From contig JADKJM010000019.1 in assembly GCA_016721005.1 (NCBI GenBank), forward strand, positions 323,747-387,746: 64,000 nucleotides of DNA. The letters run 5' to 3'. The DNA comes from Flavobacteriales bacterium (GTDB lineage: Bacteria; Bacteroidota; Bacteroidia; Flavobacteriales_F; PHOS-HE28). The position numbers were made by a program, and so were the translations under genes. Below the pieces are notes generated by a model. That model made no database searches. It saw nothing but the letters and a program-made list of their open reading frames with translations, and was not told the DNA's origin. Shown here one piece after another: positions 24,306-64,000 of the stretch; within the stretch, counting starts at the first letter, position 1; each line of letters begins with the position of its first letter.

Positions 24306-24359
24306 GGCGCTCACTGTCCCAAATGTAACGGGCGGTACGACCTGATCTACTTTTGAGCC

Positions 24360-34101: not shown

Positions 34102-34254
34102 CTCTCGGTCTTCTCCATCACACAGCCCTCTCCATCCGTTGCGTACTTGTTGCGGTGCGTGCATTCCACCGCGTCCGCTCACATCGCTGATCGTCAAGCA
34201 ATAGCCGGTGCGGTCCTGCCGTTTTATCCACAGGTCGGCGCCGTGTGTTGAAAA

Positions 34255-34554
34255 GTGTCCATCGCATCGTGCAGGACGTTCATCTACTTTTCGGTGCCCC
34301 TACTACACATGGACTTCGCACACATCCGGCAGTATGCCCACCAACATTGCCGCTTCAAGCTGCGCAATGGAAAGGAGATCTATGGCGTGGTATGGGAAGT
34401 GGAGACCACTGATGCGAATGGTGACGGCGCCAACAAGCGACTCTACTTCGCCAGCGTTCGCGACTACGAGCGCTTACAACACAGCGCCACACCCGTGCAT
34501 GTGATGCCCATGCAACCCGAGGAGATCGTGGGCGTGGAGAGTTTGGCGAGTTAG
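34255..34554 (+). CDS. Small hypothetical protein (real start may be the ATG at 34309)
   Basis: 99-aa ORF with protein-like composition, no recognisable domain. Confidence 0.35.
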   Translation: MSIASCRTFIYFSVPLLHMDFAHIRQYAHQHCRFKLRNGKEIYGVVWEVETTDANGDGANKRLYFASVRDYERLQHSATPVHVMPMQPEEIVGVESLAS

Positions 34555-34565
34555 ACCAGAACACC

Positions 34566-35546
34566 ATGCGCCATGCGATCGGCTTTCTGCTCGTGTGTGC
34601 AAGCAGCGCTCTTCTCCCGTTCTTCACTTCAGCGCAGAACCTAGTGCCCAACGGTGGGTTTGAGGAATACACTGTCGATTGCACATTCGGGATCGGATTC
34701 TATGGATTGGCGGATTGGCGCTACTTGAACTGCGGAAATTCTCCAGGGCTTGCGCGCGCGTGCAACAATAACACTGGCAATGGTGGTGGTGTTCCTCAGA
34801 GTGGGTTAGGGTATCAGTATGCACATGAAGGGGATGGGTTCATTATGACAGAACCGTACTTCTCGAATGCGCAAAGCGGCCTCCCGGATGCCAATCCACA
34901 GACATACGCCAACGTGGACCTCGTACAGTCCTTGACCGCCGGGCAACGCTATTGTTTGCGGTTGTGGATGAACATGGCTGACTCATCCTGCTATCGTACT
35001 GACACCTTCCATGCCTATGTCGGTTACGGCATTCCCACCCTGTGCAATTATGCGGATACCGCATGGGACACCTATGCCACGGCCACGTGGGACATCAGCA
35101 TTGTGGATACCGCCGAATGGACCTTGCTTGAAAGCGAGTTCATCGCCAATGGTGGGGAGACCAACCTTACACTCGGTGCTTTCCAGTTCGATGCCGAGAT
35201 CAACAGCGTATTCCTTGCTGATCATAGCAGCTTGTTCGGTGCGCTTGTCGCGGCATACTACATAGATGATGTGGAACTCTGGGCCTGCCAAGTGGGTGTG
35301 GAGGAAGTGAACAGCAACAACGCGCTTGCGCTTTTCCCGGACCCCGCTGACCAATGGGTCACCATGTCCTATTCGGGGGTCGATGTGGTGGGTGCCGCTC
35401 TATCCAACACGGTTGGACAGGATGTGACCCCGAAGAGTTGGGGCGCCACCACCTTATACCATTTGGAACTAAGAGATCGCCCAAAGGTGCCGTGCGATGT
35501 TGAAGTAGTCGAAGTTGCAGATGGACTTTACCTCAGTGGGGCTTAG
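34566..35546 (+). pseudogene. Secreted T9SS cargo protein gene interrupted inside its C-terminal sorting domain by an IS630-like element. Native ORF ends at 35456; the in-window reading continues into IS sequence.
   Basis: Signal peptide MRHAIGFLLVCASSALLPFFTSAQ. C-terminal …LALFPDPADQWVTMSYSG…VGQDVTPKSWGATT is the N-terminal half of a type-A Por_Secre_tail. The matching end of the domain lies at 36599..36715 beyond the IS. Confidence 0.65.
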
Positions 35547-49242: not shown

Positions 49243-52200
49243 ATGCATAGCGATTACGATTACCTGCTGGCCAAGCTCGACACCTTCATCCGGAAGTACT
49301 ACAAGGACAGATTGATCCGGGGTGCGCTCTACAGCGTGGGTTTGGTGGTGGTGGTTTTCCTGCTCGCCGCGTCCTTGGAAGCCGTTGGGCATTTCGGGGT
49401 TTCAGCGCGCACCGCGCTCTTCTGGGTCTCCGTCGCCGCTATGGGAGTCATCATCGGTCGCTTCGTGATCCTTCCGGTGATCAAGCTCATGCGCTTGGGC
49501 GCGATCATTTCGCACACAGAAGCGGCCCGCATCGTTGGTGAACATTTCGGCGACGTGCGCGACAAGCTCTTGAACACGCTTCAACTGCGCTCCCAAGGTG
49601 TTGCTCAAGGCGGCAGTCGTGCGTTGATCGAGGCTGCGGTGGCCCAGCGCAGCAAGGAGCTTGGGCCGGTCCCGTTCACCAATGCCATCGATCTTCGGAG
49701 GAATACCAAGTACCTGCGTTACGCACTGCCTCCGCTAGCGGTTCTCGCAATCCTATTGTTCGCCGCCCCGTCATTCATTACCGGCTCCGCCAAGCGCCTG
49801 ATCGAACATGGAAAGGAGTTCATCCCAGAGGCGCCGTTCCGCTTCGTGATCCTCAATGACACGCTTGAGGTGGCCGAGGACCAGGACTTCGAATTGGTGG
49901 TTGAACTCACTGGTGACGCCATTCCGCAGCAGGTCGATCTGGAGGTCGATGGTCAGCATATACCACTCGTGAAGCAGAGCACTGTTCGATTCCTGCACCG
50001 CTTCCGCAATGTTCGGAAGGATGTTGATTTCCGTGTTTCGGCGGAAGGATTCCATTCTGTGGGATACACGTTGAAGGCCGTTCCACATCCGCTATTGCTC
50101 GGCGTTGACCTCACTCTATCCTATCCGCCCTACCTCGGCATGCCGGAGGAGAGTGTCAGGAACTCAGGAGATCTGACCATTCCTGCTGGGACCAGGATCA
50201 CGTGGAATATCGGAGCCCGTAGTGCGGACCGGATGCAGCTGGCTTTCGACGACACCTCTTACTCCACCCCACCTTCCGCAGGCTCCGACGATGCACCTGT
50301 TTTCCGATTCTCCAGACGCCTGTTACAAAGTCGGACATACCAACTCACTCCTTCCTTCGGTGGTCGAACCGCGGCCGAGGCTGTGCGCCACCGACTGGAG
50401 GTCATACCGGATCTTTATCCGAGCATACAGGTTGCCTCGCGTACCGACAGCTCCGCACTCAAGCGCCTCTTCTTCAATGGGGAGGTCAGTGATGACCATG
50501 GGGTTCGTCGGCTGTTGTTCCATTACCGCTTCGTCCAAGGCGGGGATAGTGTTCCCGTTGATCGGCGCAGTGGAGTGATGGAACTCCGCATTGACCCGCG
50601 CAGCACGCGACAGGAGTTCTTTCATGGCTGGGACCTGTATGACCTCACCATCATGCCCGGGGATCGGATCGAGCATTGGTTCGAGGTGTGGGATAACGAC
50701 GGCGTGAATGGCAGCAAGAGCACCCGCACCGCTGCGCAAGTCTTTGCGGCACCCACGACCAGGGAACTGATGGAGAAGCGCGATGCCAGCAGCGAAGCCA
50801 TTCAAGGGACACTTCGAGAGAATATCCGGGAGGCCCAGGACCTTCAGCGCGAATTGGACAAGCTCCGGCGTGAACTCCTCGAGAAGAAGGAGTCCGACTG
50901 GAAGGACAAACAGAAATTGCAGGAGGTCCTGGAACGGCAAAAGCAATTGCAGGAGCGGATCGAGCACAATTCCGAACAGCTACGCCAAAGCCAGCAGGAA
51001 CAGCGGGAGTTCAGTCCGATGGATGAGCGACTAATGGAGAAACAACAGCGGATCCAAGAGCTCTTCGAGAACGTTCTGAGCGAGGAGATGAAGGAGTTGT
51101 ACCGCAAGGTCGAGGAGATGCTTCAGCAGGTCGACAAGGAGAAACTTCAGGACCAGCTCCGGGAGATGAAGCTCGGCCAGGAGGACATGGAGAAGGAGAT
51201 GGATCGTGCCTTGGAACTCTTCAAACGGATGGAGGTGGAGCAGAAGGCCGAGGATCTTGCCGAACAATTGCGCGAGATGGCGGGGCGGCAGGAGGAATTA
51301 TCCGAGAAGAGCAAAGAGGGAAGGGAGGAAAGCGAAGCTCTCAAGCAACAACAAGATGAGCTGAACAAGGAATTCGAGGCCTTGCGTGAGCAGATGGATG
51401 AGTTGCAGAAGAAGAACGAGGCCTTGGAGGAACCCATGAACATTCCGGATACCGACGTCCAGGAGCAGGGGATCCAGGAGGACCAGAAGCAGAGTAGTGA
51501 TCAGTTAGGCAAGGGCCAGAAGCAGAAGGCGGGTGGTGCACAGAAAAGCGCCGCCGAGAAAATGGAACAGCTCGCCTTTCAGATGGAAAGCGCTATGGGT
51601 GGCGGGGAGCAGGAGCAACAAGAAGAGGACATGGACGCATTGCGCCAGCTCTTGGAGAACATCGTACAGCTCAGCTTCGATCAAGAGGCCCTGATGAATG
51701 ACCTCGCTGGTACAAGTGTTCGCGATCCGCGATTCACGGAGCACAGCCGTACGCAGCGCGAGCTTCGCGATGATGCGAAAGTGATCGAGGATTCCCTGTT
51801 CGCCTTGAGCAAGCGCGTTCCTCAACTGCAGAGCATCGTGAACCGGGAGATGAACGCGGTGAACGACAACATGGACGAGGCGCGTAGAATGCTTGGTGAA
51901 GCCCGTGCCAATGAGCGATTCAAGCCCATGGCGACGGATAAGCAACAACACGCCATGACCTCACTGAACAATCTGGCGCTGCTGCTGGATGAGGCCCTAC
52001 AGCAAATGATGCAACAGATGATGGCCCAGAGCAAGCCCGGCAGTGGGAGTTGCAAAAAGCCCGGGGGCACGGGCAGTGGCCAGGGGAAGAAGCCCAGTAT
52101 GTCGAAAATGAAAGCCCAACAAGAAGCGCTGCAGAAACAATTGGAGCAGATGCGCAAAGCCATGCAGGAGGGAAAGGCGAAGGGCGAGAAGCCGGGTCAG

Positions 52201-52659
52201 CAGAACCCGGGTAGTATGGGAATGCCGGGCATGAGCCAGCAATTGGTACAGCTCGCTGCTCAGCAAGCCGCGATCAGGAAGGAGATGCAGCGCATGGGAC
52301 AGGAGATGAACAAGGATGGAAGCGGCGCTGGCAATGAGTTGAATCGGCTTGCGCAACAGATGGAACAGCAGGAGCGCGACATCGTCAACCGCAACATCAC
52401 TCCGGAGACCATGCATCGCCAACAGGACATCATGACAAGGCTCCTGGAGCATGAGAAGGCCGAGCGGGAGCGCGAGCTCGATCAAAAGCGGACGAGCAAC
52501 GAGGGCCGCGAACAACCACCTACCGATCCGGCAAGAGTATTCGAGCAACAACGACGCAAAGCCCGCGAAGCAGAATTGCTTCGCACCCTTCCTCCGGGGC
52601 TGAAGCCGTACTACCGGGATCGCGTGAACGCCTATTTCGGTACTTTTGACCGACCCTGA
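49243..52659 (+). CDS. Large membrane-anchored coiled-coil protein (1138 aa) resembling Bacteroidota DUF4175-type proteins: N-terminal TM hairpin, beta-rich middle region, ~500-aa Glu/Gln/Lys-rich coiled coil, conserved C-terminal region
   Basis: Two N-terminal TM helices (…GALYSVGLVVVVFLLAASL… and …ALFWVSVAAMGVIIGRFVIL…). Long low-complexity E/Q/K/R/L heptad region 50780..52500. The DUF4175 family assignment is from memory of similar ~1100-aa Bacteroidota proteins next to an RsbW-like gene. Confidence 0.6.
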   Translation: MHSDYDYLLAKLDTFIRKYYKDRLIRGALYSVGLVVVVFLLAASLEAVGHFGVSARTALFWVSVAAMGVIIGRFVILPVIKLMRLGAIISHTEAARIVGEHFGDVRDKLLNTLQLRSQGVAQGGSRALIEAAVAQRSKELGPVPFTNAIDLRRNTKYLRYALPPLAVLAILLFAAPSFITGSAKRLIEHGKEFIPEAPFRFVILNDTLEVAEDQDFELVVELTGDAIPQQVDLEVDGQHIPLVKQSTVRFLHRFRNVRKDVDFRVSAEGFHSVGYTLKAVPHPLLLGVDLTLSYPPYLGMPEESVRNSGDLTIPAGTRITWNIGARSADRMQLAFDDTSYSTPPSAGSDDAPVFRFSRRLLQSRTYQLTPSFGGRTAAEAVRHRLEVIPDLYPSIQVASRTDSSALKRLFFNGEVSDDHGVRRLLFHYRFVQGGDSVPVDRRSGVMELRIDPRSTRQEFFHGWDLYDLTIMPGDRIEHWFEVWDNDGVNGSKSTRTAAQVFAAPTTRELMEKRDASSEAIQGTLRENIREAQDLQRELDKLRRELLEKKESDWKDKQKLQEVLERQKQLQERIEHNSEQLRQSQQEQREFSPMDERLMEKQQRIQELFENVLSEEMKELYRKVEEMLQQVDKEKLQDQLREMKLGQEDMEKEMDRALELFKRMEVEQKAEDLAEQLREMAGRQEELSEKSKEGREESEALKQQQDELNKEFEALREQMDELQKKNEALEEPMNIPDTDVQEQGIQEDQKQSSDQLGKGQKQKAGGAQKSAAEKMEQLAFQMESAMGGGEQEQQEEDMDALRQLLENIVQLSFDQEALMNDLAGTSVRDPRFTEHSRTQRELRDDAKVIEDSLFALSKRVPQLQSIVNREMNAVNDNMDEARRMLGEARANERFKPMATDKQQHAMTSLNNLALLLDEALQQMMQQMMAQSKPGSGSCKKPGGTGSGQGKKPSMSKMKAQQEALQKQLEQMRKAMQEGKAKGEKPGQQNPGSMGMPGMSQQLVQLAAQQAAIRKEMQRMGQEMNKDGSGAGNELNRLAQQMEQQERDIVNRNITPETMHRQQDIMTRLLEHEKAERERELDQKRTSNEGREQPPTDPARVFEQQRRKAREAELLRTLPPGLKPYYRDRVNAYFGTFDRP

Positions 52660-52664
52660 AGATC

Positions 52665-53099
52665 ATGGCTGCTATTGAAGAGCTGGCGTTCACCGAGCGG
52701 ATCGACTTCCCCGCGAAAGCAGAGAACATCGCATTGGCGGAAAAGCTGATCGATGAAGCCTGTTCGCGTTATGGCGTTCACGAGAGCCTCTATGGCAACA
52801 TTCTTATCGCCCTCACCGAGGCAGTGAATAACGCGATCCACCATGGCAACGCGCTTGATCCAACAAAAACAGTCACCCTTGGTTATGAGGTGAAGGATGA
52901 TCGGATCGTGTTCATGGTCCAGGACCAAGGCGCTGGATTTGACTTCAACCACCTCCCCGACCCTACGGACCCGCAGAACCTGGAAAAGCCGCATGGTCGT
53001 GGGGTTTTCCTGATGCGGGCGCTGGCGGACTCCATTGAGTTCCGCGACAATGGCGCAACGGTGGCCCTTGCTTTTAGCAGGCAGCCCGTCACGGATTGA
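52665..53099 (+). CDS. Anti-sigma regulatory factor-like ATP-binding protein (RsbW/SpoIIAB-type HATPase serine-protein kinase)
   Basis: 144 aa; …NILIALTEAVNNAIHHGN (N-box), …VQDQGAGFDF (G1-box), …HGRGVFLMRALADSIEF (G2-box region). Confidence 0.7.
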   Translation: MAAIEELAFTERIDFPAKAENIALAEKLIDEACSRYGVHESLYGNILIALTEAVNNAIHHGNALDPTKTVTLGYEVKDDRIVFMVQDQGAGFDFNHLPDPTDPQNLEKPHGRGVFLMRALADSIEFRDNGATVALAFSRQPVTD

Positions 53100-53101
53100 C
53101 C

Positions 53102-53521
53102 ATGTCCGTCATATCGTTCAGCGCTCACCGTGTGCCGAACATATTTCGGGATCGGGAACGGCTGCGCAAATGGATCCACTGTATCGCAAAGGACCACGGC
53201 ATCGGTGTCGGTGAACTGAATTTCGTCCTCCTCGGAGAGAGCGAAATGCTTGAGTACAATCGCCGTTACCTTCAACACGACGACCATACGGATGTGATCG
53301 CATTCGACGGACAAACCGGAACCGGGGTAAGTGGGGATGTGCTGATCAGCTCACCTCGTATTCGCGAGAATGCAGCCACTTTCGGCACTCCTGTCCAACA
53401 AGAACTACGACGTGTGATGGTCCACGCGCTCCTTCATCTTCTAGGGCACAGCGACAAGAGCCGAGCAAAGAAGCTCGCGATGCAGATCTTGGAGGATAAA
53501 TACTTGGAACGGTACCGCTAG
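53102..53521 (+). CDS. ybeY: rRNA maturation RNase YbeY
   Basis: Metal-binding motif HALLHLLGHSD (H-x-x-x-H-x-x-x-x-x-H). ~140 aa. Start at the ATG at 53102 (the ORF-track start is an upstream TTG). Confidence 0.85.
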   Translation: MSVISFSAHRVPNIFRDRERLRKWIHCIAKDHGIGVGELNFVLLGESEMLEYNRRYLQHDDHTDVIAFDGQTGTGVSGDVLISSPRIRENAATFGTPVQQELRRVMVHALLHLLGHSDKSRAKKLAMQILEDKYLERYR

Positions 53522-53560
53522 GATATTGGCACGCCCTAGTGAGCGACGACCAATACCTGA

Positions 53561-53944
53561 TCACTTACCGCCCGTACGCTCCTTGACCAAGCTAAGCGCA
53601 CCCGTGCGAACGGTTTCCGCCTTTGCCTTGATCTCAGCCCACTGCTCTTCATTCGCCGTATTGACCGTGGTCAACATGCCTTCAAGTTGGCTCAGGCTTT
53701 TTTGCATCCGGGCGCGCATGGCGTCTTGTTCCGGTGTTGCCTTGGTCGCATCCGGTCCGATCTCACGGTTCAAATGAGCGATGTCCTGGCTCAGGATGCC
53801 GTAGGCCTCCTTCAACTGAGCACTAGTTGCCCGAATTTCATCTTGGACGGAAACCTGCTCGGCAGCGGAACTTGCGTCCTGGGCAGAGGCGGAAGTCGAG
53901 ATGGCCATCAGGCCAATGCAGGAAGCGAGAAAAAGGTTCTTCAT
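53561..53944 (-). CDS. Hypothetical secreted protein (signal peptide, helical/coiled-coil)
   Basis: MKNLFLASCIGLMAISTSASAQ signal peptide. Normal composition, unlike the overlapping R-rich plus-strand ORFs. Confidence 0.55.
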   Translation of the reverse strand: MKNLFLASCIGLMAISTSASAQDASSAAEQVSVQDEIRATSAQLKEAYGILSQDIAHLNREIGPDATKATPEQDAMRARMQKSLSQLEGMLTTVNTANEEQWAEIKAKAETVRTGALSLVKERTGGK

Positions 53945-54131
53945 GGGTTGGGGATTCTTCGGTCTGTTTCTATGATCGGAGCAATAAAGATGAGGCTTTG
54001 GTCCTTATCGGCCAAACCAAGAGCCTCTTCTTCGACGGCCCGGCCAAGCGTTTGGTTGCTTCGGAAATCGTTGTGAAAATTGCCTCGCGACCTGCGTACC
54101 AATACCTTTCCCCCATCAAACCCATCAAACC

Positions 54132-54623
54132 ATGCGTACAATGAAACTCCTGCTTGGGCTCATCTTAGCTCTCACAGTTGCCAATACCGGTTTCGCTCAG
54201 GACAAGAAGACAAGCAAGGAGAAGGCTGCTCTTCAGAAAATGTACACGGACTTTCTCGCCGAGGAGGGCTACAAGCCGGAGATCGATAGCGACGGGGATG
54301 TCCAGTTCAAGAGCGAGGGAAAAACCTACTTCATCAATGTGGTCGAGGATGACCCCACGTACTTCCGAGTGGTTCTAGCGAACATCTGGCCGATCGAAAG
54401 CGAAGAGGAGCGCGCCCAGTGCCTGGTCGCAGTGGACTATTCCAATGCTAAGGCGAAGGTGACCAAGAGTTACCTCGTTAAGGACAACATCTGGGTTGGC
54501 ATAGAATTGTTCCTTCCAAAGGCCGAGGATTTCGACGATGTATTTCGCAGGAGCATGAGTGCACTTAGCAATGGCGTTACTCACTTCGTCACCAAGATGC
54601 GGGAACTTCAGGGTAAGGATTGA
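54132..54623 (+). CDS. Hypothetical secreted protein, possibly YbjN-like
   Basis: Signal peptide MRTMKLLLGLILALTVANTGFAQ. 163 aa. The YbjN-like assignment is tentative and from memory. Confidence 0.5.
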   Translation: MRTMKLLLGLILALTVANTGFAQDKKTSKEKAALQKMYTDFLAEEGYKPEIDSDGDVQFKSEGKTYFINVVEDDPTYFRVVLANIWPIESEEERAQCLVAVDYSNAKAKVTKSYLVKDNIWVGIELFLPKAEDFDDVFRRSMSALSNGVTHFVTKMRELQGKD

Positions 54624-54640
54624 TCCCTTGATCGGATCAC

Positions 54641-54683
54641 GAAAGACAAGACCCTTGGCCGATCGCCAGGGGTCTTGTCTTTC
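54641..54683 (+). terminator. Perfect 14-bp-stem hairpin 18 nt after the stop of gene 54132..54623, without a U-tract (possible terminator or regulatory stem-loop upstream of mnmG)
   Basis: GAAAGACAAGACCC (54641..54654), 15-nt loop, GGGTCTTGTCTTTC (54670..54683). Confidence 0.35.
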
Positions 54684-54797
54684 GCAGGTATACAACCGCC
54701 AAGGGGCTCCACCTTCCCTTTGCTATCTTTCGCCCTTGGTTCATGATTCGCATCTCGTTGGCCCTCAGCCAGATGCGTAAATATCCACCCCCATTCC

Positions 54798-56762
54798 TTG
54801 AGTCAGCCGGATATCTACGACGTTGTTGTTGTCGGTGGAGGACATGCGGGCTGTGAAGCTGCCGCTGCTGCCGCGAATCTCGGCAGTCGTGTTCTACTTG
54901 TGACCATGAACATGGGCGCTATCGGTCAAATGAGTTGTAACCCCGCAATGGGCGGTATCGCGAAGGGCCAGATCGTGCGGGAGATCGATGCACTGGGCGG
55001 GCATAGTGGTGTGGTGAGCGACCGGAGCATGATCCAGTTTCGTATGCTCAACCGTAGCAAGGGTCCGGCCATGTGGAGTCCTCGGACCCAGAATGACCGT
55101 GCTCGATTCGCGGAGGAATGGCGACTCACGCTGGAGCGCACGCCAAATGTCCACTTCTGGCAGGACAGCGTCGTTGAGTTGGTCACGGAGTCCTCTTCCA
55201 GCGGCGCCTCTTCTGGCGAAACCGCACACCCGAGGGTCGTGGGTGTGCGTACCGCCTTGGGGTCCACTATCCGGTGTCGCTCTGTGGTTCTAACGAGCGG
55301 GACATTCATGAATGGGGTCATGCATATCGGCGACCGCAAGATGGGCGGTGGACGAGCGGGGGAGAAGGCCAGTCACGGGATCACGGAGCAATTGGTTCGG
55401 CTAGGATTCGAGTCTGGCCGGATGAAGACCGGCACCCCTCCCCGCGTTGATGGCAGAAGCATTGATTACTCTGTTCTCGAGGAACAACCTGGCGACAGCG
55501 CTCCTGGAAAATTCAGTTTCCTGCCTAGCTCTGTTCCACCAGCAACCCAATTGAGTTGTTGGATCACGTACACGAACACCGCGGTTCACGACGTGCTCCG
55601 TTCCGGCTTCGATCGGAGCCCGATGTACAACGGGGCCATTGCTGGAACGGGTCCTCGTTATTGTCCCAGCATCGAAGACAAGATCACCCGATTCGAAGAT
55701 CGTGATCATCATCAGATCTTCGTAGAGCCAGAGGGTTGGCAAACTGTTGAGACCTATATAAACGGATTCAGCACAAGCCTTCCCGAGGATGTACAGGTCA
55801 AGGCACTTCGGTTGATCCCGGGCTTCGGGGATGTAAGGATCTTTCGTCCGGGATACGCCGTTGAGTACGACTACTTCCCCCCTACCCAGCTCAAACACTC
55901 TTTAGAGACCAAGTTGGTTGACGGGCTCTTCTTTGCCGGACAGATTAACGGAACGACCGGATATGAGGAAGCGGCATGTCAGGGCTTGATGGCTGGCATC
56001 AACGCACACCAGGTGATTGGAGGTAAAGAACCATTTGTTCTTGGTCGGGACGAGGCCTATATAGGGGTTTTGATCGACGACCTTATTACGAAAGGTACCG
56101 AAGAGCCCTATCGCATGTTCACTAGTCGGGCTGAGTTCCGCTTGATGCTTCGACAGGACAACGCCGACCTCCGGTTGACTCCAAAAGGCTTTCAGTTAGG
56201 GTTGGCCGACGAACACCGCATGAGGCGGGTAGAGTCAAAGCAGCGATGGCTCGGTAATCTCACAACGCATATGCGATCCACCAGTGTCTCTTCCGAGGCC
56301 GCGAACGAGATCCTTGTTCCGCGTGGAACAACGGCAGTGAATCAAAAGGTGCGGTTGTACGACCTATTACTACGACCACAGATCTCATTCTCGGACCTAG
56401 TGGTGTTTGCTCATACTGACGACCCTGATATTTCAAATCCTGCGCTGCCGCAGCTCGGAGGTCACGCAATTCATGGCATGAATGTCGACCCCTTCCTTCG
56501 GCAAGAAACGATTGAGCAACTCGAGATCGGCGCTAAGTACGGCGGGTATTTGGAAAAGGAAAGGGAGGCTGCTGAAAGGGTCGTGCGCCTCGAAAACCTA
56601 CTGATCGACCCTGACCTCGAGTACAGGAAATTAGGAGCATTGTCGATGGAGGCGCGCCAAAAATTGGATGTGGTCAGACCAACAACGCTAGGTCAAGCGT
56701 CTCGAATTAGCGGCGTTTCCCCGTCCGATATCAGTGTTCTGCTTGTCTATTTGAGTCGCTGA
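54798..56762 (+). CDS. mnmG: tRNA uridine-5-carboxymethylaminomethyl(34) synthesis enzyme MnmG (GidA)
   Basis: FAD-binding N-terminus DIYDVVVVGGGHAGCEAAAAAANLG…; conserved …CNPAMGGIAKGQIVREIDALGG…; 654 aa. TTG start at 54798 (no in-frame ATG). Confidence 0.9.
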   Translation: MSQPDIYDVVVVGGGHAGCEAAAAAANLGSRVLLVTMNMGAIGQMSCNPAMGGIAKGQIVREIDALGGHSGVVSDRSMIQFRMLNRSKGPAMWSPRTQNDRARFAEEWRLTLERTPNVHFWQDSVVELVTESSSSGASSGETAHPRVVGVRTALGSTIRCRSVVLTSGTFMNGVMHIGDRKMGGGRAGEKASHGITEQLVRLGFESGRMKTGTPPRVDGRSIDYSVLEEQPGDSAPGKFSFLPSSVPPATQLSCWITYTNTAVHDVLRSGFDRSPMYNGAIAGTGPRYCPSIEDKITRFEDRDHHQIFVEPEGWQTVETYINGFSTSLPEDVQVKALRLIPGFGDVRIFRPGYAVEYDYFPPTQLKHSLETKLVDGLFFAGQINGTTGYEEAACQGLMAGINAHQVIGGKEPFVLGRDEAYIGVLIDDLITKGTEEPYRMFTSRAEFRLMLRQDNADLRLTPKGFQLGLADEHRMRRVESKQRWLGNLTTHMRSTSVSSEAANEILVPRGTTAVNQKVRLYDLLLRPQISFSDLVVFAHTDDPDISNPALPQLGGHAIHGMNVDPFLRQETIEQLEIGAKYGGYLEKEREAAERVVRLENLLIDPDLEYRKLGALSMEARQKLDVVRPTTLGQASRISGVSPSDISVLLVYLSR

Positions 56763-56815
56763 GGCGGTCTCGGTATTGTTGCCTTCTTTTCCTCTTAACA
56801 ATCAATCTTTACGAA

Positions 56816-57736
56816 ATGCTCCACGTGGAACACCGCGATTTCGAGTCGCTCACTTCGTGTCCGATCTGCAAAGCCGAAGACTTGGTGCAAGTCTCAAGTA
56901 TTCGGGATTTCAGCCATAGCCTTGAGACGTTTTTACTTGCTGATTGCGCAACTTGCGGTTGCCGTCTGACAAATCCTCGTCCCAAACAGAGCTTCATCCA
57001 TCGCTATTACTCCGGCCCGTCCTATATTAGCCATACAAATTCCCGTGCCTCCATTGCAGACCGCGTGTATCAGGTCGCTCGCCTGTGGACCCTTCGACGC
57101 AAATACCGTCTCATTCAACGCTTTCACAAAGGGGGGCATGTTCTGGATCTGGGGTGTGGAACTGGTGAGTTCTTAGGCTACTTGAAGAAGCGCGGATACC
57201 TAGTCGATGGGATTGAGATCAATTCGCGTGCTCGGGAATCTGCGCTCACCAACTATGGCGTTCGACCTCACTCGAACCTGGATGAATTGAACGCTGGTGT
57301 CGAGTTCCAAGTAATCACCCTGTGGCACGTTCTGGAACACCTGCCTGATCCGGGGTTGGTCCTGAAGCGCATCTTCGCTTTACTCAAAAGGGATGGGGTC
57401 GTGATCATCGCGGTACCCGACCGCGAAAGTTGGGATGCGCATCATTACGGTGAACATTGGGCTGCGTGGGACGTTCCCAGACACCTATATCACTTCCGAA
57501 GACAAGACATGGTTCGGCTCTTGGAGGAACACGGCTTCGTCCTACTAAGGACCAAGCCGATGTGGTTGGACGCTTTCTACGTGGCCATGCTTAGTGAAGG
57601 CTACGCGGGTGGGCGGCAACCGTGGATATGGGCACTGGGCTTCTTCAATGGATTTCGATCCAATCTGGCAGCCCTCATGTGCAAGGCGCCGACATCAAGC
57701 ATGCTATACATCGCGCAAAAGGGGAAGTCCTCATAG
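56816..57736 (+). CDS. Class I SAM-dependent methyltransferase with N-terminal Cys4 zinc-ribbon
   Basis: CPICKA…CATCGC zinc ribbon; …VLDLGCGTGEFLGYL (motif I); …GVVIIAVPD (post-I/II). Confidence 0.75.
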   Translation: MLHVEHRDFESLTSCPICKAEDLVQVSSIRDFSHSLETFLLADCATCGCRLTNPRPKQSFIHRYYSGPSYISHTNSRASIADRVYQVARLWTLRRKYRLIQRFHKGGHVLDLGCGTGEFLGYLKKRGYLVDGIEINSRARESALTNYGVRPHSNLDELNAGVEFQVITLWHVLEHLPDPGLVLKRIFALLKRDGVVIIAVPDRESWDAHHYGEHWAAWDVPRHLYHFRRQDMVRLLEEHGFVLLRTKPMWLDAFYVAMLSEGYAGGRQPWIWALGFFNGFRSNLAALMCKAPTSSMLYIAQKGKSS

Positions 57737-58004
57737 CGCCCATTTTTGGACCCATCCGCGCCTTTACCCTCATTGCGGAACCCGCTGCTCTCTCGAATGA
57801 GTTCGGCGCTCCCGGGACGATTCTGTGACGCTTCTTTAGCTTTGTTATACTAGGCTCACTTTCAACGTGTTATAAACTGACTTGCCGCCCAAACTGGCTC
57901 AATGCCTCATAATTCTTGATATAACCATTGGTGTGATCCCCTGCGCACAGCCCGCCGATGGCTCAGATTACCTTCGGCGTCTAAACCCGCCTTAACCTAA
58001 GAAA

Positions 58005-59567
58005 ATGTCCAGCATTGCCACACGTCCTACCACTCTCCAAGGTGCCATGTTGAAGCCACTCCGCATCGAACCCAACTCCAGCGGCGTTTCGACCGGGTCG
58101 GTGAGCCTTCGCGGAGAGGGTGTTCCGCTGGAAAGCATAAGCCCCGTGAATGGCATGCCGATCGGCAGCGTTCGAAGCGCGACAAGAGCTGAGTACGATG
58201 CCGCTGTGACAACTGCCGTTAATGCCTTCCAAGTTTGGCGCTCTTGGCCCGCCCCTAAACGCGGTGATGTGGTGAGACAATTCGGAGAAGAACTCCGAAT
58301 ACATAAAGTCCATCTGGGGCGGCTGGTTAGCTATGAGATGGGCAAAAGCCTACAGGAGGGTTTAGGAGAGGTTCAAGAAATGATCGACATCTGCGATTTC
58401 GCGGTTGGTCTATCACGACAACTCCACGGCCTGACCATGCACAGCGAGCGGCCGGACCACCGCATGTACGAGCAGTGGCACCCCTTGGGGGTCGTTGGTA
58501 TCATCACCGCCTTCAATTTTCCCGTCGCCGTTTGGGCTTGGAACACAGCATTGGCCTGGGTCTGCGGGAACACTTGCGTTTGGAAACCGAGTGAGAAGAC
58601 GCCCCTATGCAGCATCGCCTGCCAGAAGATCATCGCCGAGGTGTTCGCTCGGAACGGTGTCCCGGAGGGTGTTAGTGTGGTCATCAATGGAGGTCGCGAA
58701 GTAGGCGAGTGGTTGAGCAGCGATGAGCGTATTCCGCTGATTAGTGCAACGGGCAGCACGCGCATGGGTAAAGCAGTAGGAGCTGTTGTTGGTCAGCGCT
58801 TGGGTCGTTCACTCTTGGAGCTAGGGGGGAATAATGCGATCATCATCAGTGATAAGGCGGACCTGGATATGGCCTTGATCGGATGCGTCTTCGGCGCGGT
58901 AGGCACCGCCGGGCAGCGCTGCACATCGACCCGACGTTTGATCATACACAAGTCGGTGTATGACGACTTCAAGGCAAAGCTTGTTTCCGCCTACGGCCAA
59001 TTGCGCATCGGCGACCCCTTGGATCCAAAAAATCACGTGGGTCCACTTATCGATCACACAGCGGTAAAGGCCTTCCAGCATGCGCTCGAGGCGGGCAAGG
59101 AACAAGGGGGGCGATTACTTGTCGGCGGTGATGTTCTGACCGGCAAAAACTTCGAGAGCGGATGTTACGTGTCCCCGGCCATCGTGGAGGCTACCCCGGG
59201 AATGGCCATCGTCAAGGAGGAGACTTTCGCCCCGATCCTTTATCTTCTTCGATACAACGGAGATATCGCGGAGGCGATCGCCATTCAGAATAATGTGAGG
59301 CAAGGCCTTAGCAGTTCCATCATGACCAATGATCTCCGTGAAGCCGAACGCTTCTTGGGTCCTACGGGAAGTGATTGCGGTATCGCGAATGTGAACATCG
59401 GCACCAGCGGTGCGGAGATCGGAGGTGCATTCGGCGGCGAAAAGGAAACCGGGGGTGGCCGGGAGAGCGGGAGTGACGCATGGAAGGCCTACATGCGGAG
59501 ACAAACAACCACGATCAACCACGGAACAAATCTTCCGCTGGCCCAAGGGATCAAATTCGACCTATAG
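58005..59567 (+). CDS. Aldehyde dehydrogenase family protein (ALDH7/antiquitin-like, possibly piperideine-6-carboxylate dehydrogenase)
   Basis: 520 aa; …VWKPSEKTPL…, catalytic-Cys region …GTAGQRCTSTRRLIIHKSVYD…, …ELGGNNAII… (E-L-G-G-x motif). Confidence 0.8.
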   Translation: MSSIATRPTTLQGAMLKPLRIEPNSSGVSTGSVSLRGEGVPLESISPVNGMPIGSVRSATRAEYDAAVTTAVNAFQVWRSWPAPKRGDVVRQFGEELRIHKVHLGRLVSYEMGKSLQEGLGEVQEMIDICDFAVGLSRQLHGLTMHSERPDHRMYEQWHPLGVVGIITAFNFPVAVWAWNTALAWVCGNTCVWKPSEKTPLCSIACQKIIAEVFARNGVPEGVSVVINGGREVGEWLSSDERIPLISATGSTRMGKAVGAVVGQRLGRSLLELGGNNAIIISDKADLDMALIGCVFGAVGTAGQRCTSTRRLIIHKSVYDDFKAKLVSAYGQLRIGDPLDPKNHVGPLIDHTAVKAFQHALEAGKEQGGRLLVGGDVLTGKNFESGCYVSPAIVEATPGMAIVKEETFAPILYLLRYNGDIAEAIAIQNNVRQGLSSSIMTNDLREAERFLGPTGSDCGIANVNIGTSGAEIGGAFGGEKETGGGRESGSDAWKAYMRRQTTTINHGTNLPLAQGIKFDL

Positions 59568-59713
59568 ACACCGGGACTTCCTGTTGCTGGGTTCGCCCTG
59601 TGTAGAGGAGTCTGGTTCCGCGCTGGCCTCACAAGAGTCCGCGATGTGACCTATTCTGTCTGGTGCTGTGGCGTTGTCGCTTAAGTGGTCCGGCTATATT
59701 CGCCCGCCCTCGA

Positions 59714-60964
59714 ATGCGATCCTACATTCTGCCTGTATTGGTCCTACTTGCTTCTGTCACAGGTTGCAGCACTACCGATCGACCAACACCGCGTATTGGT
59801 GAGTGGCGAATGGAGCTCGACCTTGGGGGCAAAGTCCTTCCCTTCTCGTTCTCGCTGGATCGGGCGTCGGACTCGTTGTGGGTCGTGATCATTCATAACG
59901 GTGCGGAGCAGATCGCCGTGAGCGATGTGGTCATCGTTGACGACTCCATCTCGATCCGTATGCCCCTTTTCGATTCCGAGTTCATCGGGAAGTTCGCCAA
60001 TGACTCACTTATCAATGGGCGATGGTACAATCACCTGAAGGGACCCGACTACAGCCTTCCTTTCCGTGCCCTTGCCGGAGCTGCCCCTAGGTTTCCAATA
60101 GGGTCGTCAACGGGGTTTGTCAGCGGATCGTGGGAAACGCACTTCAGCCATGGAACTCCGGACGCGTACAATGCCATTGGCGTGTTCAATGCGGATACAA
60201 AGGGAGGGCTGACCGGGACGTTCCTGACCGAAACAGGAGACTATAGATACTTGGAGGGTGGCCTGCACAATGATTCGTTGCGCCTTTCATGTTTTGACGG
60301 TTCACACGCGTTCCTTTTCGAGGCAGCGTTGAATGGTGACTCGCTCATCGGTCGGTTCTGGAGCGGGTCACATTGGCAAGAACCATGGGTTGCGACCCGC
60401 AACGAAGAATACAAACTGCGGGATCCCGATTCACTGACCACGTTGCGCGAGGGATATGACATGATCGACTTCCGCTTTCCGGACACGGAGGGGAAGCTGG
60501 TATCCCGTAGGGACGAGCAATTTCGTGGACGCGTGTTGATGGTCCAGGTCATGGGAAGCTGGTGCCCCAATTGCGTGGACGAGACCCGACTTTTGCAAGA
60601 GGTCTACACCAAGTATCACGACCGCGGGCTGGAGATCATTTCGATCGCATTCGAAAAGCAGACTGACCAGGAGCGTGCGATCGAGGGTTTACAGCGATTC
60701 AAGACCGCACTTGATGTTCATTACCCGGTTCTGTACGGGGGGCTTGCTTCCAAGGAGGTGGCCAGTGCTAAACTGCCGTTCCTCGAACACCTTATGAGCT
60801 ATCCCACGTGCGTCTTCATTGATCGCGCCGGTAGGGTGCGGCGCATACGAACGGGCTTCTATGGACCCGGAACAGGGCAACACTACGAACACTACAAGCG
60901 CAATCTGATCGCCTTCCTGGAAGAGATGCTCAATGAGCATCCGGGGGCTGTGGCTCAGAAGTGA
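59714..60964 (+). CDS. TlpA-family thiol-disulfide oxidoreductase (thioredoxin-fold redoxin) lipoprotein with N-terminal beta domain
   Basis: Lipoprotein-like signal MRSYILPVLVLLASVTGCS; thioredoxin CxxC motif …MGSWCPNCVDE…. Confidence 0.75.
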   Translation: MRSYILPVLVLLASVTGCSTTDRPTPRIGEWRMELDLGGKVLPFSFSLDRASDSLWVVIIHNGAEQIAVSDVVIVDDSISIRMPLFDSEFIGKFANDSLINGRWYNHLKGPDYSLPFRALAGAAPRFPIGSSTGFVSGSWETHFSHGTPDAYNAIGVFNADTKGGLTGTFLTETGDYRYLEGGLHNDSLRLSCFDGSHAFLFEAALNGDSLIGRFWSGSHWQEPWVATRNEEYKLRDPDSLTTLREGYDMIDFRFPDTEGKLVSRRDEQFRGRVLMVQVMGSWCPNCVDETRLLQEVYTKYHDRGLEIISIAFEKQTDQERAIEGLQRFKTALDVHYPVLYGGLASKEVASAKLPFLEHLMSYPTCVFIDRAGRVRRIRTGFYGPGTGQHYEHYKRNLIAFLEEMLNEHPGAVAQK

Positions 60965-60969
60965 CCCGC

Positions 60970-62475
60970 CTATTTGATCGACTTGTCCACCACGATCCGC
61001 GACTCACGATTGGCGAGCCTCCATGCCGTGTGGAACACAAGGAGCGCGCGCTGGCGCAATAGGTCGAATCGGATCTTGTCCACATCGTCACCTGGCTGGT
61101 GGTAATCCTCGTGTACACCACTGAAGTAGAAGATGCACGGCACCCCTTTTCGCGCAAAGTTGTAGTGGTCACTGCGGTAGTAGAACCGGTTGGGGTCATC
61201 CTCCGCGTTGAACGTATAGTCCAACTGGAGGCCAACACTCCGGTTCGCGGTCTCATTCACTTCGTGCAATTCGCTGCTGAGCCGATCACTGCCAATGATG
61301 TACACATACGGCGCGCCTGTGCTATGTGCGCTGTCCACCCGCCCGATCATATCGATATTCAAGTCCGCTACCGTACTGGACAGCGGAAACACGGGGTGAT
61401 CGCTGTAATAGCGGGAGCCCAGCAGTCCTTTCTCCTCACCACTGACTGGCATGATGAGCACGCTTCGGCGCGGTCCTTGGCCGGCGGCCTTGGCCTTCGC
61501 AAACGCTTCCGCGATCTCCAATAGTGCGACCGTTCCGCTGCCATCATCATCCGCTCCGTTGTACACCACTCCATTCTCCACACCAATGTGATCGTAGTGC
61601 GCGGTGATGACCACCAACTCGTCCTTCTTGTCCGAACCCTCGATATAGGCCAATACATTCTCCGCGACAACGCGCTCTTCCTGCGGTCGCGAGCGCATCT
61701 CGAACGTCACCTTCATGATGTATCCCGGCTTCTTCTTCGCGATCCTTCTAACCCCCTTGCTTCCGATCAAGGAGTTCATCACCTGATCACTCACAAGGAC
61801 CAATTGTCCTGCGGGACCCGACTTCTTTGTAGTGTTCTGATCCGCCAATCGCATTCGTGAGCCGCCATGCACGAAGGCCTCGAAGTCGGCGAGTTCAGGA
61901 GTGCTGACCAGGATCAGGTTCGCGCCCCTCTTCCGAAGCTCCTCAACCCGGGTCCTGAGCTTACTGATCGCCTCTTCACCACGACCGATCGATCCGCCAT
62001 CCATCAGGATCGTTCGCCCCGTGATCGCGACTTTCCCAGATACCACCGACCCATCTCCCACATAGGTCATCTCGCTCACATTCAGATCCGAAGTGAGCGT
62101 GGTGTTGAAGTACACCAGGCCTTTCAACAAGCCATACACGTCATTGCCTGAGGCCAGCTCCAGCCCGCCGGCTTTCTCCTCGATCACCTCGTAGGGTTGG
62201 AAATAACCTTCTGTGATCCCCTTCGCTTCGCCATCCGGAACCGGTGGTATCCCCATTTCCTTGAATTGTTCTTTCAGGTAGGCGGCCGCCATTTTCTGGC
62301 CCTCCTTTCCAGTTTCCCTTCCAAGGAAAGTGTCACTGGCAAGCACTTTCAGGTGGGCCTCCAGTTCACTGGTTGTAATGGTGTTCGCGTACTGCACCGC
62401 GATCGTATCCACTTGCCCGGATACACCTGCCACGCTCAGTAGGAGCACAGCGAGGAATGAACCTCGTTCTAACAT
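60970..62475 (-). CDS. M28 family metallopeptidase (aminopeptidase with PA domain)
   Basis: Signal peptide. Zn-ligand motifs …ITAHYDHIG…, …GADDDGSGTVALLEIA…, …MPVSGEEKGLLGSRYY…, …DHYNF…HQPGDD. Confidence 0.8.
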   Translation of the reverse strand: MLERGSFLAVLLLSVAGVSGQVDTIAVQYANTITTSELEAHLKVLASDTFLGRETGKEGQKMAAAYLKEQFKEMGIPPVPDGEAKGITEGYFQPYEVIEEKAGGLELASGNDVYGLLKGLVYFNTTLTSDLNVSEMTYVGDGSVVSGKVAITGRTILMDGGSIGRGEEAISKLRTRVEELRKRGANLILVSTPELADFEAFVHGGSRMRLADQNTTKKSGPAGQLVLVSDQVMNSLIGSKGVRRIAKKKPGYIMKVTFEMRSRPQEERVVAENVLAYIEGSDKKDELVVITAHYDHIGVENGVVYNGADDDGSGTVALLEIAEAFAKAKAAGQGPRRSVLIMPVSGEEKGLLGSRYYSDHPVFPLSSTVADLNIDMIGRVDSAHSTGAPYVYIIGSDRLSSELHEVNETANRSVGLQLDYTFNAEDDPNRFYYRSDHYNFARKGVPCIFYFSGVHEDYHQPGDDVDKIRFDLLRQRALLVFHTAWRLANRESRIVVDKSIK

Positions 62476-62479
62476 GATA

Positions 62480-62920
62480 TCAGTTGGTGGTTTCGATCTT
62501 CTCTACCCGGCGCTGGTGTCGCCCACCCTCAAAGGTGGCAGCAAGGAATGCATCAAGGATCTTCCTAGCCTCGTCTTCCTTGATGAACCGCGCCGGCAAT
62601 GCCAACACGTTCGCGTTATTGTGCTCCCTTGCCAAGGAAGCGATATCCGGTCGCCATGCAAGCGCGGACCGAATGCCCACGTGCTTGTTGGCCGCCATAT
62701 TCACACCATTACCGCTACCACAAACCACCACTCCCAAGGTCGCCTCTCCACCAAGCACGGCCTGGGCCACTGCGTGCGCATGGTCCGGGTAGTCTACACT
62801 GGTCGGGTCATTGGTTCCTTCATCCAGGACCTTGAACCCCTTGTCTACCAAGTGCTTCTTCAGCACCTCCTTCAATTCAAATCCCGCGTGGTCGCTACCG
62901 ATCGCAATGGTCTCCGCCAT
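62480..62920 (-). CDS. rpiB: Ribose-5-phosphate isomerase B
   Basis: MAETIAIGSDHAGFELKE…GVVVCGSGNGV… (RpiB/LacAB family). Start at the ATG at 62920 (the ORF-track start is an upstream GTG). Confidence 0.85.
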   Translation of the reverse strand: MAETIAIGSDHAGFELKEVLKKHLVDKGFKVLDEGTNDPTSVDYPDHAHAVAQAVLGGEATLGVVVCGSGNGVNMAANKHVGIRSALAWRPDIASLAREHNNANVLALPARFIKEDEARKILDAFLAATFEGGRHQRRVEKIETTN

Positions 62921-62939
62921 GAGGCGAAGATACCTCACC

Positions 62940-63348
62940 GCTTGGGCACGATCCTATCAACGATCCACCTGTTCGATCCCTTCTTTCTCTGTGGATAATG
63001 AAGCACAACATTCCACCGCTGTTGATAACCCCATCCGCCATGATCGATCCGTCCGGAAAAACAAATCTTGTTATGTCCTTGATGTCGACAAGGATCCAAC
63101 CATCCAGGTCTTCGATCCATTGCTTGTATTATCAACATCCATCAGCCGACCCACTATTCAACGATCGTTCATTTCCCGGACGAAGTCCCGCCTCCCTAAG
63201 TAGGATCACTGCCTCGTTCCTGGATCGATCGTTGCTTGGGTGTGGACTAACTTTGATAACCCGATCGTGCAAGTCGATCCGCAACCGATCATGAACGGTT
63301 TCAACCGACCATTGTATTACTACATCAATATCTATTAAGGTTTAAGTA
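62940..63348. promoter_or_regulatory. AT-rich divergent intergenic region with clustered DnaA-box-like 9-mers and 14 GATC sites; candidate oriC or a dense regulatory region
   Basis: Perfect DnaA box TTATCCACA (complement, 62990..62998). One-mismatch boxes TTATCAACA at 63020..63028 (complement) and 63129..63137. 14 GATC occurrences in ~345 bp, mostly as (A/T)CGATCC. AT-rich tract 63311..63348. Confidence 0.4.
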
Positions 63349-64000
63349 ATGAAGAGGTTGGTGATGATCTGTGTGGTGCTGTTGTGTGTGGTTCGGCTTA
63401 CTGTTGCACAAGGGCAAGAGGACGGCTACACGAAGTACTACCACGCCAACGGTCTGGTGAGCAGTGAAGGAACACTGGTGGACGGAAAGCCGGAGGGTTG
63501 GTGGAAGACCTACTACGAGTCCGGGATCCTGAGATCGGAAGGCGGTCGGAAGCAGTTCCAATTGGACAGTCTCTGGAGGTTCTATTCCGCGAACGGAAAG
63601 CTACAGAGCGAGACCTACTACCGAGCGGATAGGAAGGAGGGAATGGCCAGAAGATTCGACACGACCGGAACCGTGCTGAGTGAAGAGAATTACGTGGCCG
63701 ATCTGCGCGAAGGTGTCGCGCACTATTTCCAGGAGAATGGTTCGCTGTACCAGGAGATCCCCTTCAAAGCGGGCAAGGAGGAGGGCTTGGGATACGAGTA
63801 TTCGCCGGATGGCCGGATCGTCTCGATCCTTCACTACGGCGCAGGGATGCTGCGCAAGCGGGAGGATATCAACCGGACCGATGTGATGGGTTTGAGACAA
63901 GGCACATGGAAGGAATTCCACCCCAACGGCAAGGTGCGGCTTGAGGGGAATTACGTGGATGACCGGAAGCAAGGGATCTTCAAGGAGTACGATGCGCTCG
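63349..64000 (+). CDS. MORN-repeat variant protein (YwqK-family-like), partial, continues past window end
   Basis: Signal peptide MKRLVMICVVLLCVVRLTVAQG, then repeated G-x-x-x-G-x-W-K/E-x-Y-Y/F-x-N-G-x-L motifs (DGKPEGWWKTYYESGILRSEG; REGVAHYFQENGSLYQE…). Not in the ORF track because it runs off the edge. Confidence 0.7.
   Translation, partial: MKRLVMICVVLLCVVRLTVAQGQEDGYTKYYHANGLVSSEGTLVDGKPEGWWKTYYESGILRSEGGRKQFQLDSLWRFYSANGKLQSETYYRADRKEGMARRFDTTGTVLSEENYVADLREGVAHYFQENGSLYQEIPFKAGKEEGLGYEYSPDGRIVSILHYGAGMLRKREDINRTDVMGLRQGTWKEFHPNGKVRLEGNYVDDRKQGIFKEYDAL

Follow-up and report, generated by a model that had tools for sequence, protein, structure and literature searches.

A conserved non-coding gap between rpiB and a MORN-repeat gene is the probable chromosomal replication origin of an uncultured GC-rich Flavobacteriales-like bacterium

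Between rpiB and a MORN-repeat gene, which are transcribed divergently, lies a non-coding gap that may be a chromosomal replication origin (oriC) or a regulatory region. The gap, 428 bp long, lies at positions 62921-63348 of a 64,000-bp stretch of contig JADKJM010000019.1 (GenBank assembly GCA_016721005.1), which is referred to here as the window. In all likelihood it serves an uncultured Flavobacteriales-like bacterium, a GC-rich representative of the Bacteroidota, as chromosomal oriC. This reading had been put forward in an initial annotation of the window and is the best supported of those weighed below. It is based on the sequence elements of the gap, which include a module of DnaA boxes, trinucleotides and A/T-rich DNA, on their conservation with boxes fixed in position, on their single-copy position, and on an origin-type polarity of third-codon GC skew (GC3 skew) in relatives. 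DnaA binding, unwinding and firing at the gap are predicted from these data.

The likely start of rpiB is the ATG at 62918-62920 (a longer alternative would start at a GTG at 62938), and the gap is therefore taken to begin at 62921. With 47% G+C, compared to 54-62% in the window, it has the lowest value among the gaps of the window, and the A+T content reaches 72% at the start of the MORN gene (63321-63360). The GC-poor divergent arrangement, for which both genes were identified by Pfam or NCBIfam, and the AT-rich tract were thereby found as annotated, and the perfect DnaA box and the two boxes with one mismatch that had been noted are all present (Table 1). These are the three boxes with at most one mismatch in the gap; the whole window holds 18, compared to 7.7 expected by shuffling. 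When two mismatches are allowed, the gap holds five boxes (one perfect, two with one mismatch, two with two) versus 0.83 expected, and boxes of the TTATNNAC type occur three times versus 0.04 expected. The only other perfect box of the window, at 34224-34232, is located in a 464-bp intergenic gap (34102-34565) and could be part of a DnaA-regulated promoter or a chance occurrence; the gene downstream of it (34566-35546) has no Pfam match.

Fourteen GATC sites are present in the gap (62950, 62962, 62975, 63042, 63046, 63093, 63114, 63163, 63204, 63223, 63227, 63263, 63276 and 63287). The initial annotation had given this count correctly, but its expectation of about one site was too low: for 428 bp, base composition gives about 1.6, the density of other intergenic DNA (8.0 per kb) 3.4, and the density of the whole window 4.9. 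On either of the last two backgrounds the excess stays significant (Poisson P = 1.4e-5 for intergenic DNA and 5e-4 for the whole window), and at 32.7 sites per kb the gap is the GATC-densest of the window. The longer motif (A/T)CGATCC or its complement, in which most of the sites had been said to lie, covers seven of the 14; CGATCC itself occurs seven times versus 0.68 expected from the rest of the window. No other 4-bp palindrome is as frequent in the window as GATC, which has 728 sites there (11.4 per kb, 1.33 times the Markov expectation). CTAG occurs there at 0.50 times its Markov expectation. GATC usage varies greatly across the phylum, several of the Bacteroides loci used for comparison being nearly devoid of it (0.0-0.1 per kb).

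The GATC sites are mostly parts of a longer unit. In k-mer counts over 16 aligned gaps from the window and its relatives, AACGATC/GATCGTT occurs 59 times versus 3.4 expected. The flank of the GATC reads GT(T/G)(G/C)A(T/A)(A/T)(A/C), which corresponds to the DnaA box TGTGGATAA, the C of GATC taking the place of the first T. The resulting units resemble TTATCAAC-GATC, are often palindromic (AACGATCGTT) and, where conserved, occur in both orientations; two arrangements prevail in the clade, GATC-N4-GATC with 25 cases, which is the commonest spacing, and the palindromic ACGATCGT with 15. Because the GATC belongs to the repeated box unit, its enrichment is explained structurally and is not a signal separate from the DnaA boxes. 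In the gap of the window AACGATC/GATCGTT occurs four times, where its frequency in the remainder of the 64 kb predicts 0.11, ATNAACGATC units five times versus 0.13 expected, and the GATC-fused box motif is 33-fold enriched; no second cluster of box/GATC units was found elsewhere in the 64 kb. Across 22 clade loci the mean is 3.4 AACGATC/GATCGTT per gap versus 0.10 per 470 bp in 292 kb of flanking DNA. The initial annotation had offered, as an alternative, that CGATCC marks operators of a generic regulator; recurrence of the motif at other promoters was looked for in the 64 kb and in the 292 kb of clade flanks and was not seen. The sole other spot in these flanks with three AACGATC/GATCGTT in 450 bp is located about 8.3 kb upstream of rpiB in locus L002.

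GATC is common genome-wide and its raw count in the gap is less extreme than first estimated, which would suit a chance or compositional artefact, and stop-free stretches of up to 123 codons would suit an unannotated small gene; a structured RNA, such as a 5' leader of the MORN gene, is a third version of the same objection. All three are highly improbable. The enrichment holds on the correct backgrounds given above, and the units lie in both orientations, as expected of protein-binding DNA rather than of an RNA or a gene. The stop-free stretches differ in frame and place between loci, and a tblastn search with a 98-aa open reading frame returned only the 94%-identical twin of the locus. No Rfam family was detected in the gap (best E = 0.88, 15 bits versus a threshold of 44 bits), and for 14 sequences of the 110 nt that precede MORN, RNAalifold predicted not a single base pair.

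The clade of the window was sampled by scanning metagenome contigs with the M28 peptidase encoded downstream of rpiB, which gave about 22 loci from metagenomes or metagenome-assembled genomes (MAGs). One of them, L081, is a near-twin with 94% DNA identity over positions 50972-64000 of the window and extends 4.9 kb past it. About 20 others are more distant, with M28 peptidases 49-64% and flanking proteins 45-70% identical. The gene order LytTR regulator, PAS histidine kinase, MORN, gap, rpiB, M28 is common to all clade loci, and beyond M28 follow AhpC-like, aldehyde dehydrogenase and methyltransferase genes and, on the opposite strand, mnmG. In the relatives the 600 bp upstream of rpiB are 7-10 points lower in G+C than the locus, contain GATC at 2-3.5 times the local density (e.g. 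14 versus 3.9, 16 versus 5.6) and usually hold one to three boxes with at most one mismatch versus 0.1-0.3 expected. In a MAFFT alignment of the 16 gaps, variable and near-invariant blocks alternate, and the boxes and several GATC are fixed in position; the GATC at 63163 is the only one kept in all 16 sequences. An nhmmer profile built from this alignment matched once per locus (E 1e-100 to 1e-22), always abutting rpiB, and also matched L002, a GTDB MAG named 'Flavobacteriales bacterium' that is outside the training loci; neither the related loci, about 3 Mb in all, nor the 64-kb window yielded a further copy of the element. As the gap is conserved in blocks though the flanking proteins diverge, non-coding DNA has been deeply conserved here.

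Read towards MORN, the clade consensus consists of GGTGCGC-TACTTTTG-ATAACCC (a weak box combined with TAnnTTTG), a short variable stretch, the tandem boxes TCATCAACA-CGATCAACA, a GCC spacer, the trio-like run TAT-CTT-ATA-TCA-TCA, the A/T tract TTTAAAAGA and the MORN ATG. Towards rpiB the blocks are TTATGAAC-GATC-C, the palindrome TTATCAAC-GATC-GTTGATAA, GATCGTTCGATC, GATCGATCAAG, a strong box, which in the window is the perfect one, then a palindrome of 27 bp, and GGTATCTTTG at the rpiB ATG. The most conserved block of the window (63240..63262) contains a box with two mismatches, TGTGGACTA (63241-63249), which reads TTATCAAAG on the other strand. Most relatives (gaps L082-L111) keep the 27-bp palindrome in near-perfect form, with four GATC, about 40-70 bp upstream of rpiB; it may represent low-affinity DnaA sites or an rpiB operator. 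The -7 promoter consensus of Bacteroidetes is TAnnTTTG. Both GGTATCTTTG and TACTTTTG fit it, and in the window transcripts started from TAACTTTG would cross the tandem boxes and the A/T tract before entering MORN, while TAtcTTCG, a few bases from the rpiB ATG, suggests a very short or absent leader. These promoters are considered putative because their recognition rests on the consensus.

The MORN-proximal block, which is composed of tandem boxes, a GC spacer, a trio-like run and the A/T tract, has the sequence of a DnaA-box/DnaA-trio unwinding module and is interpreted as such. The trio-like run ATT-GTA-TTA-CTA (63311-63322) opens the tract, and its complement reads 3'-NAN-5' four times. The tract itself, which would act in unwinding, has its homologs in the TTTAAAAGA...GATGATATAGTA block of the clade and, among AT-rich relatives, in the (TAT/TAA)n-TAG runs, and no GATC is present in 63291-63348, the last one being at 63287. 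The boxes at 63289..63310 align with TCATCAACA-CGATCAACA-GCC of the relatives and with TGTGGATGA or TGTGGACAA in L091, L093 and L095.

Distant comparators and controls were taken from the matches listed by an RpiB scan, at most 64% identical in RpiB, and comprise AT-rich Flavobacteriales and other Bacteroidia. In several of them DnaA boxes cluster immediately upstream of rpiB. Where this gap ends on the side away from rpiB, L053 (Crocinitomix catalasitica) reads TAT-TAT-TAT-TAT-TAG, GGC, TGTTCATT and TGTTGATAA, and L152 reads four TAA, TAG, GC, TGTTCATAG and GTTGTATAA. A profile of the module block (about 60 bp) gave 25 matches in about 3 Mb of loci scanned on both strands; all 25 are located 403-503 bp upstream of the rpiB start in one orientation, in AT-rich and GC-rich lineages alike. 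The order and orientation of the parts are also those of incC of Bacillus subtilis and of the R1/13-mer side of the Escherichia coli oriC. Under the rules published for the B. subtilis-type unwinding module (BUS; PMC8287927), the better box has at most two mismatches and a weaker tandem partner, the spacer does not exceed 16 bp, and there are three or more NAN trios, of which 3'-GAT-5' is the closest to the box. Relatives such as L091, L093, L095, L053 and L152 conform to them. The module found here would extend the proposed ancestral unwinding system to this order.

The AT-rich relatives have ordinary boxes (TTATTCACA, TGTTAATAA and similar) and no GATC excess, and AACGATC occurs only six times in total in the 600 bp upstream of rpiB in 95 non-clade loci. 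Judged from these sequences, most weak DnaA sites of the GC-rich clade appear to have been respelled so that they end in or share a GATC, as a clade-specific trait. As the module occurs in AT-rich and GC-rich lineages and the GATC array is missing from the AT-rich relatives, the origin locus would be old and the fusion with GATC a later innovation of the GC-rich clade.

The same gap could be read as a divergent promoter/operator hub, in which GATCGTT/AACGATC and the 27-bp palindromes are operators of a dimeric transcription factor, perhaps the LytTR regulator encoded two genes past MORN, that controls rpiB-M28 and/or MORN-kinase-regulator, the DnaA-like boxes being incidental. Nearly all relatives keep the regulator gene in synteny with the gap, and its product is 85-94% identical, versus 45-70% for the neighbors; palindromes are typical of operators, two conserved blocks fit -7 promoter motifs, and GATCGTTCGATC loosely resembles the AlgR-type LytTR site CCGTTCGTC. 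The hub is nevertheless unlikely. AT-rich relatives keep the regulator (62-78% identical) and the box/trio architecture but not the GATC array, and the GATC motif is therefore not the conserved site of this regulator. LytTR proteins use direct repeats of about 9 bp, about 12-13 bp apart (a period of 21-22 bp), whereas the same-orientation spacings show no peak at 21-22 bp; operators of that kind were rejected, the arrangement being palindromic or GATC-N4-GATC. At least ten sites over 430 bp, the box/trio/AT module and the skew of the relatives exceed what a promoter needs. Since promoters and an origin can share one gap, the promoter motifs are no argument against oriC.

Plain GC skew in the window tracks gene orientation. 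The coding strands of M28, rpiB and MORN (60970-64000), all of which diverge from the gap, are strongly G-rich (skew +0.16 to +0.24), most other genes of the window are near zero, and the local sign switch at the gap stops short further left. The measure used was therefore the GC3 skew of genes transcribed away from the gap minus that of genes transcribed towards it, a difference from which the effect of transcription drops out and which takes a positive sign at an origin. This term is +0.076+/-0.016 in the non-clade loci with the module (positive in 13 of 13), +0.036+/-0.012 in the clade of the window (12 of 14, the exceptions being L081 and L102), and +0.012+/-0.008 in rpiB loci without the module, which served as controls (26 of 48); when the loci were divided by their number of boxes instead, the sets ranked in the same way. 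Loci with identical gene order differ strongly (about +0.09 in L002, about +0.12 in L090, -0.05 in L081), which counts against a purely gene-specific effect. In the relatives the GC3 polarity is of the origin type at this gap.

Several observations weigh against an origin at this position. In the window alone (63 kb, plus strand) the GC3 replication term is +0.010+/-0.009, where an origin at 63 kb predicts a negative value, the 94%-identical twin L081 has the opposite sign, and orthologous genes recur across loci, so that the loci are partly dependent. When the adjacent genes were left out, GC skew gave no usable signal in the window or pooled within the clade. The genes immediately left of M28, over about 16 kb (44.7-61 kb), are transcribed towards the gap, an orientation conserved in the clade, and would be head-on to replication. 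Although the module of the window has a 4-bp spacer and four NAN trios, both boxes beside the trio-like run, TCATGAACG and GTTTCAACC, read from the sequence as four mismatches away from TTATCCACA, where the BUS rule allows the better box two. The evidence covers loci and contigs rather than a whole replicon, and a single copy per chromosome and a position at the skew minimum are predicted from those. Neither dnaA nor dnaN was found within 69 kb. This distance was discounted because the predicted oriC of Elizabethkingia, also of the Flavobacteriales, is 1.9 Mb from dnaA (E. meningoseptica, oriC at 0.74 Mb and dnaA at 2.61 Mb; PMC8994065), and a position away from dnaA is normal for Flavobacteriales origins.

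The same data bear on a regulatory DnaA-box cluster, either a titration or reactivation site of the datA/DARS kind or a DnaA-controlled rpiB/MORN promoter, with the true oriC elsewhere. The undetectable skew switch in the window's own genome, the head-on genes to the left and the weak boxes next to the A/T tract would fit such a cluster, and secondary box clusters do occur in bacterial genomes, another perfect box being present at 34224. We regard it as quite improbable: titration and reactivation sites need no adjacent trio/AT module in fixed orientation, whereas here no part is better conserved than this module, and it has no second copy in about 3 Mb of related loci, and the GC3 polarity of the relatives has the origin sign exactly at the gap.

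For oriC the following course of initiation is proposed. DnaA would first fill the three strong boxes, of which the one at 62990 is perfect and those at 63020 and 63129 read TTATCAACA. At higher levels of DnaA-ATP the weaker boxes, mostly TTAT(C/G)AAC-GATC and often in head-to-head pairs with a common GATC, would be occupied. From the tandem boxes at 63289-63306 DnaA would spread across the short GC spacer to the trio-like run, and the A/T tract (63311-63348) would open. Forks departing both ways would be co-oriented with rpiB-M28 on one side and with MORN-kinase-regulator on the other.

Compared to known systems, the origin as such is ordinary, and the systematic fusion of weak boxes with GATC is unusual. 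The BUS module of B. subtilis, reportedly described by Richardson in 2016 and Pelliciari in 2021, has the same parts in the same order and orientation: tandem boxes with the better one distal, a GC spacer of 2-4 bp, an A-centered trinucleotide run with 3'-GAT-5' nearest the boxes, and an A/T tract. In contrast, the module boxes of the window's lineage have drifted to four mismatches each, the trio run has only four units, and the origin is not beside dnaA; we know of no DnaD/DnaB-type loader context in the Bacteroidota. With E. coli oriC it shares compactness (about 250-430 bp), a position away from dnaA with gidA/mnmG nearby, the combination of strong boxes with many weak sites, and a several-fold GATC excess with some GATC overlapping weak DnaA sites. 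However, the E. coli 13-mers begin with GATC and the present A/T tract has none, and here GATC is fused to the box end (TTATCAAC-GATC) and often common to two inverted boxes. The proximity of mnmG, about 6 kb away as initially annotated, is real and syntenic in the clade, with housekeeping genes around the gap, and is weak evidence for oriC. No spill-over of the GATC excess into the flanking genes was seen, these having the ordinary density of the window; GATC-enriched genes flanking the origin were reported to be specific to Dam+ gamma-proteobacteria (PMC4786541). The predicted origin of E. meningoseptica, an Ori-Finder/DoriC-type prediction, is likewise intergenic (about 400-650 bp), with about three boxes of at most one mismatch, AT-rich tracts and a location far from dnaA (PMC8994065), a likeness of general layout, as the paper names no flanking genes. 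Unlike origins of this type in Flavobacteriales, the gap has a GATC-fused box array specific to the GC-rich clade of the window. Caulobacter Cori, which is bound by CtrA, is similar only in the close linkage, seen throughout the order, between the origin region and the gene of a highly conserved response regulator. The output domain of the present regulator is of the LytTR and not of the OmpR type, and the gap yielded no motif to which it would bind.

The GATC-fused boxes raise the question of whether initiation is timed by methylation outside the gamma-proteobacteria. As a speculative proposal, the clade may have independently evolved control of re-firing by adenine methylation, hemimethylated TTATCAAC-GATC blocking DnaA directly or via a binder other than SeqA; in a second version the linked LytTR regulator, about 90% conserved, would be an origin-associated cell-cycle regulator. 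If true, the methylation control would be convergent with Dam/SeqA of E. coli. Neither dam nor seqA is among the genes of the window; to our knowledge SeqA is confined to the gamma-proteobacteria, and we know of no Dam/SeqA-type control system in the Bacteroidota. In the literature searched, no description of GATC-fused DnaA boxes or of an rpiB-linked origin locus was found, and nothing that ties rpiB, GATC or Dam to Bacteroidota origins.

The gap provides a sequence-level origin model for a poorly studied, mostly uncultured group of Bacteroidota. The gap upstream of rpiB, often facing a LytTR regulator or MORN, is a conserved landmark, and could anchor origin calls, peak-to-trough growth estimates and genome starts in Flavobacteriales MAGs, where dnaA is no guide. 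The features of the gap and its neighbors are summarized in Table 1.

Table 1. Features of the candidate origin and neighboring genes (window coordinates)
Feature	Position	Strand	Remarks
Candidate oriC, whole gap	62921..63348		Non-coding; GC 0.47; aligns block-wise with 15 distant relatives
TAtcTTCG, likely -7 promoter element of rpiB	62925..62932	-	GGTATCTTTG in relatives; near-invariant block directly before the rpiB ATG
Degenerate copy of the clade 27-bp palindrome GGATCCAAC-GATC-c-GATC-GTTGGATCC	62949..62979		GATC at 62950, 62962, 62975; CTATCAACG, GATCCACC
Perfect DnaA box TTATCCACA	62990..62998	-	Plus-strand letters TGTGGATAA; box clade-wide at this position, TTAT(C/G)(C/A)AC(A/G)
DnaA box TTATCAACA, one mismatch	63020..63028	-	Plus-strand letters TGTTGATAA
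Double GATC GATCGATCC	63042..63050		Aligned to GGATCGATCAAG, conserved in several relatives
Weak-site cluster TGTCGACAA (two mismatches), GGATCCAAC, TTCGATCCATTG	63083..63122		GATC at 63093, 63114; rough alignment with the GATCGTTCGATC block of relatives
DnaA box TTATCAACA, one mismatch	63129..63137	+	
Palindromic head-to-head box pair TTCAAC-GATC-GTTCA	63157..63171		One common GATC (63163); clade block (T/C)ATGAACGATCGTTGATAA
GATC-fused box unit GGATCGATCGTT	63222..63233		AGCAACGATC on the minus strand; aligned to the conserved TTATGAACGATCC block; found by ATNAACGATC scan
Most conserved block GTGTGGACTAACTTTGATAACCC	63240..63262	+	Near-invariant alignment columns (GGTTATCAAAAGTAGCGCAC in relatives)
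TAACTTTG, putative promoter element	63248-63255	+	Fits the -7 motif TAnnTTTG; directed towards MORN
Tandem degenerate DnaA boxes TCATGAACG, GTTTCAACC	63289..63310	+	Followed by the 4-bp spacer GACC, which adjoins the trio-like run
A/T-rich tract, predicted DNA-unwinding element	63311..63348	+	About 72% A+T; homologous tract in all relatives
rpiB (ribose-5-phosphate isomerase B)	62480..62920	-	Left flank; Pfam LacAB_rpiB 1.6e-56; NCBIfam rpiB equivalog 163.7 (cut-off 138.65)
M28 peptidase gene	60970-62475		Downstream of rpiB; Pfam/NCBIfam
MORN-repeat gene	63349..64000	+	Right flank, runs past the window end; Pfam MORN_2; ATG at 63349
mnmG	54798-56762		Confirmed by Pfam/NCBIfam; about 6 kb from the gap

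In the near-twin contig L081 the MORN protein is 510 aa long and is followed by the PAS histidine kinase and the LytTR response regulator. The latter (251 aa) is encoded at L081:223-978, about 4.4-5.2 kb past the right end of the window and on the plus strand in window orientation. In the distant Bacteroidota loci L028, L109, L142 and L153 a LytTR regulator is located directly opposite rpiB across an origin-like gap. The context genes, among them those for the type IX secretion system (T9SS) protein PorZ, gltX, recO, dUTPase and gatA, confirm an ordinary Bacteroidota chromosome. An open reading frame at 24081-24554 (minus strand) has a weak HicB-like antitoxin domain (Pfam E = 2.4e-7), and at positions 3-16463 (minus strand) one reading frame stays open for more than 5486 codons and extends past the left end of the window.

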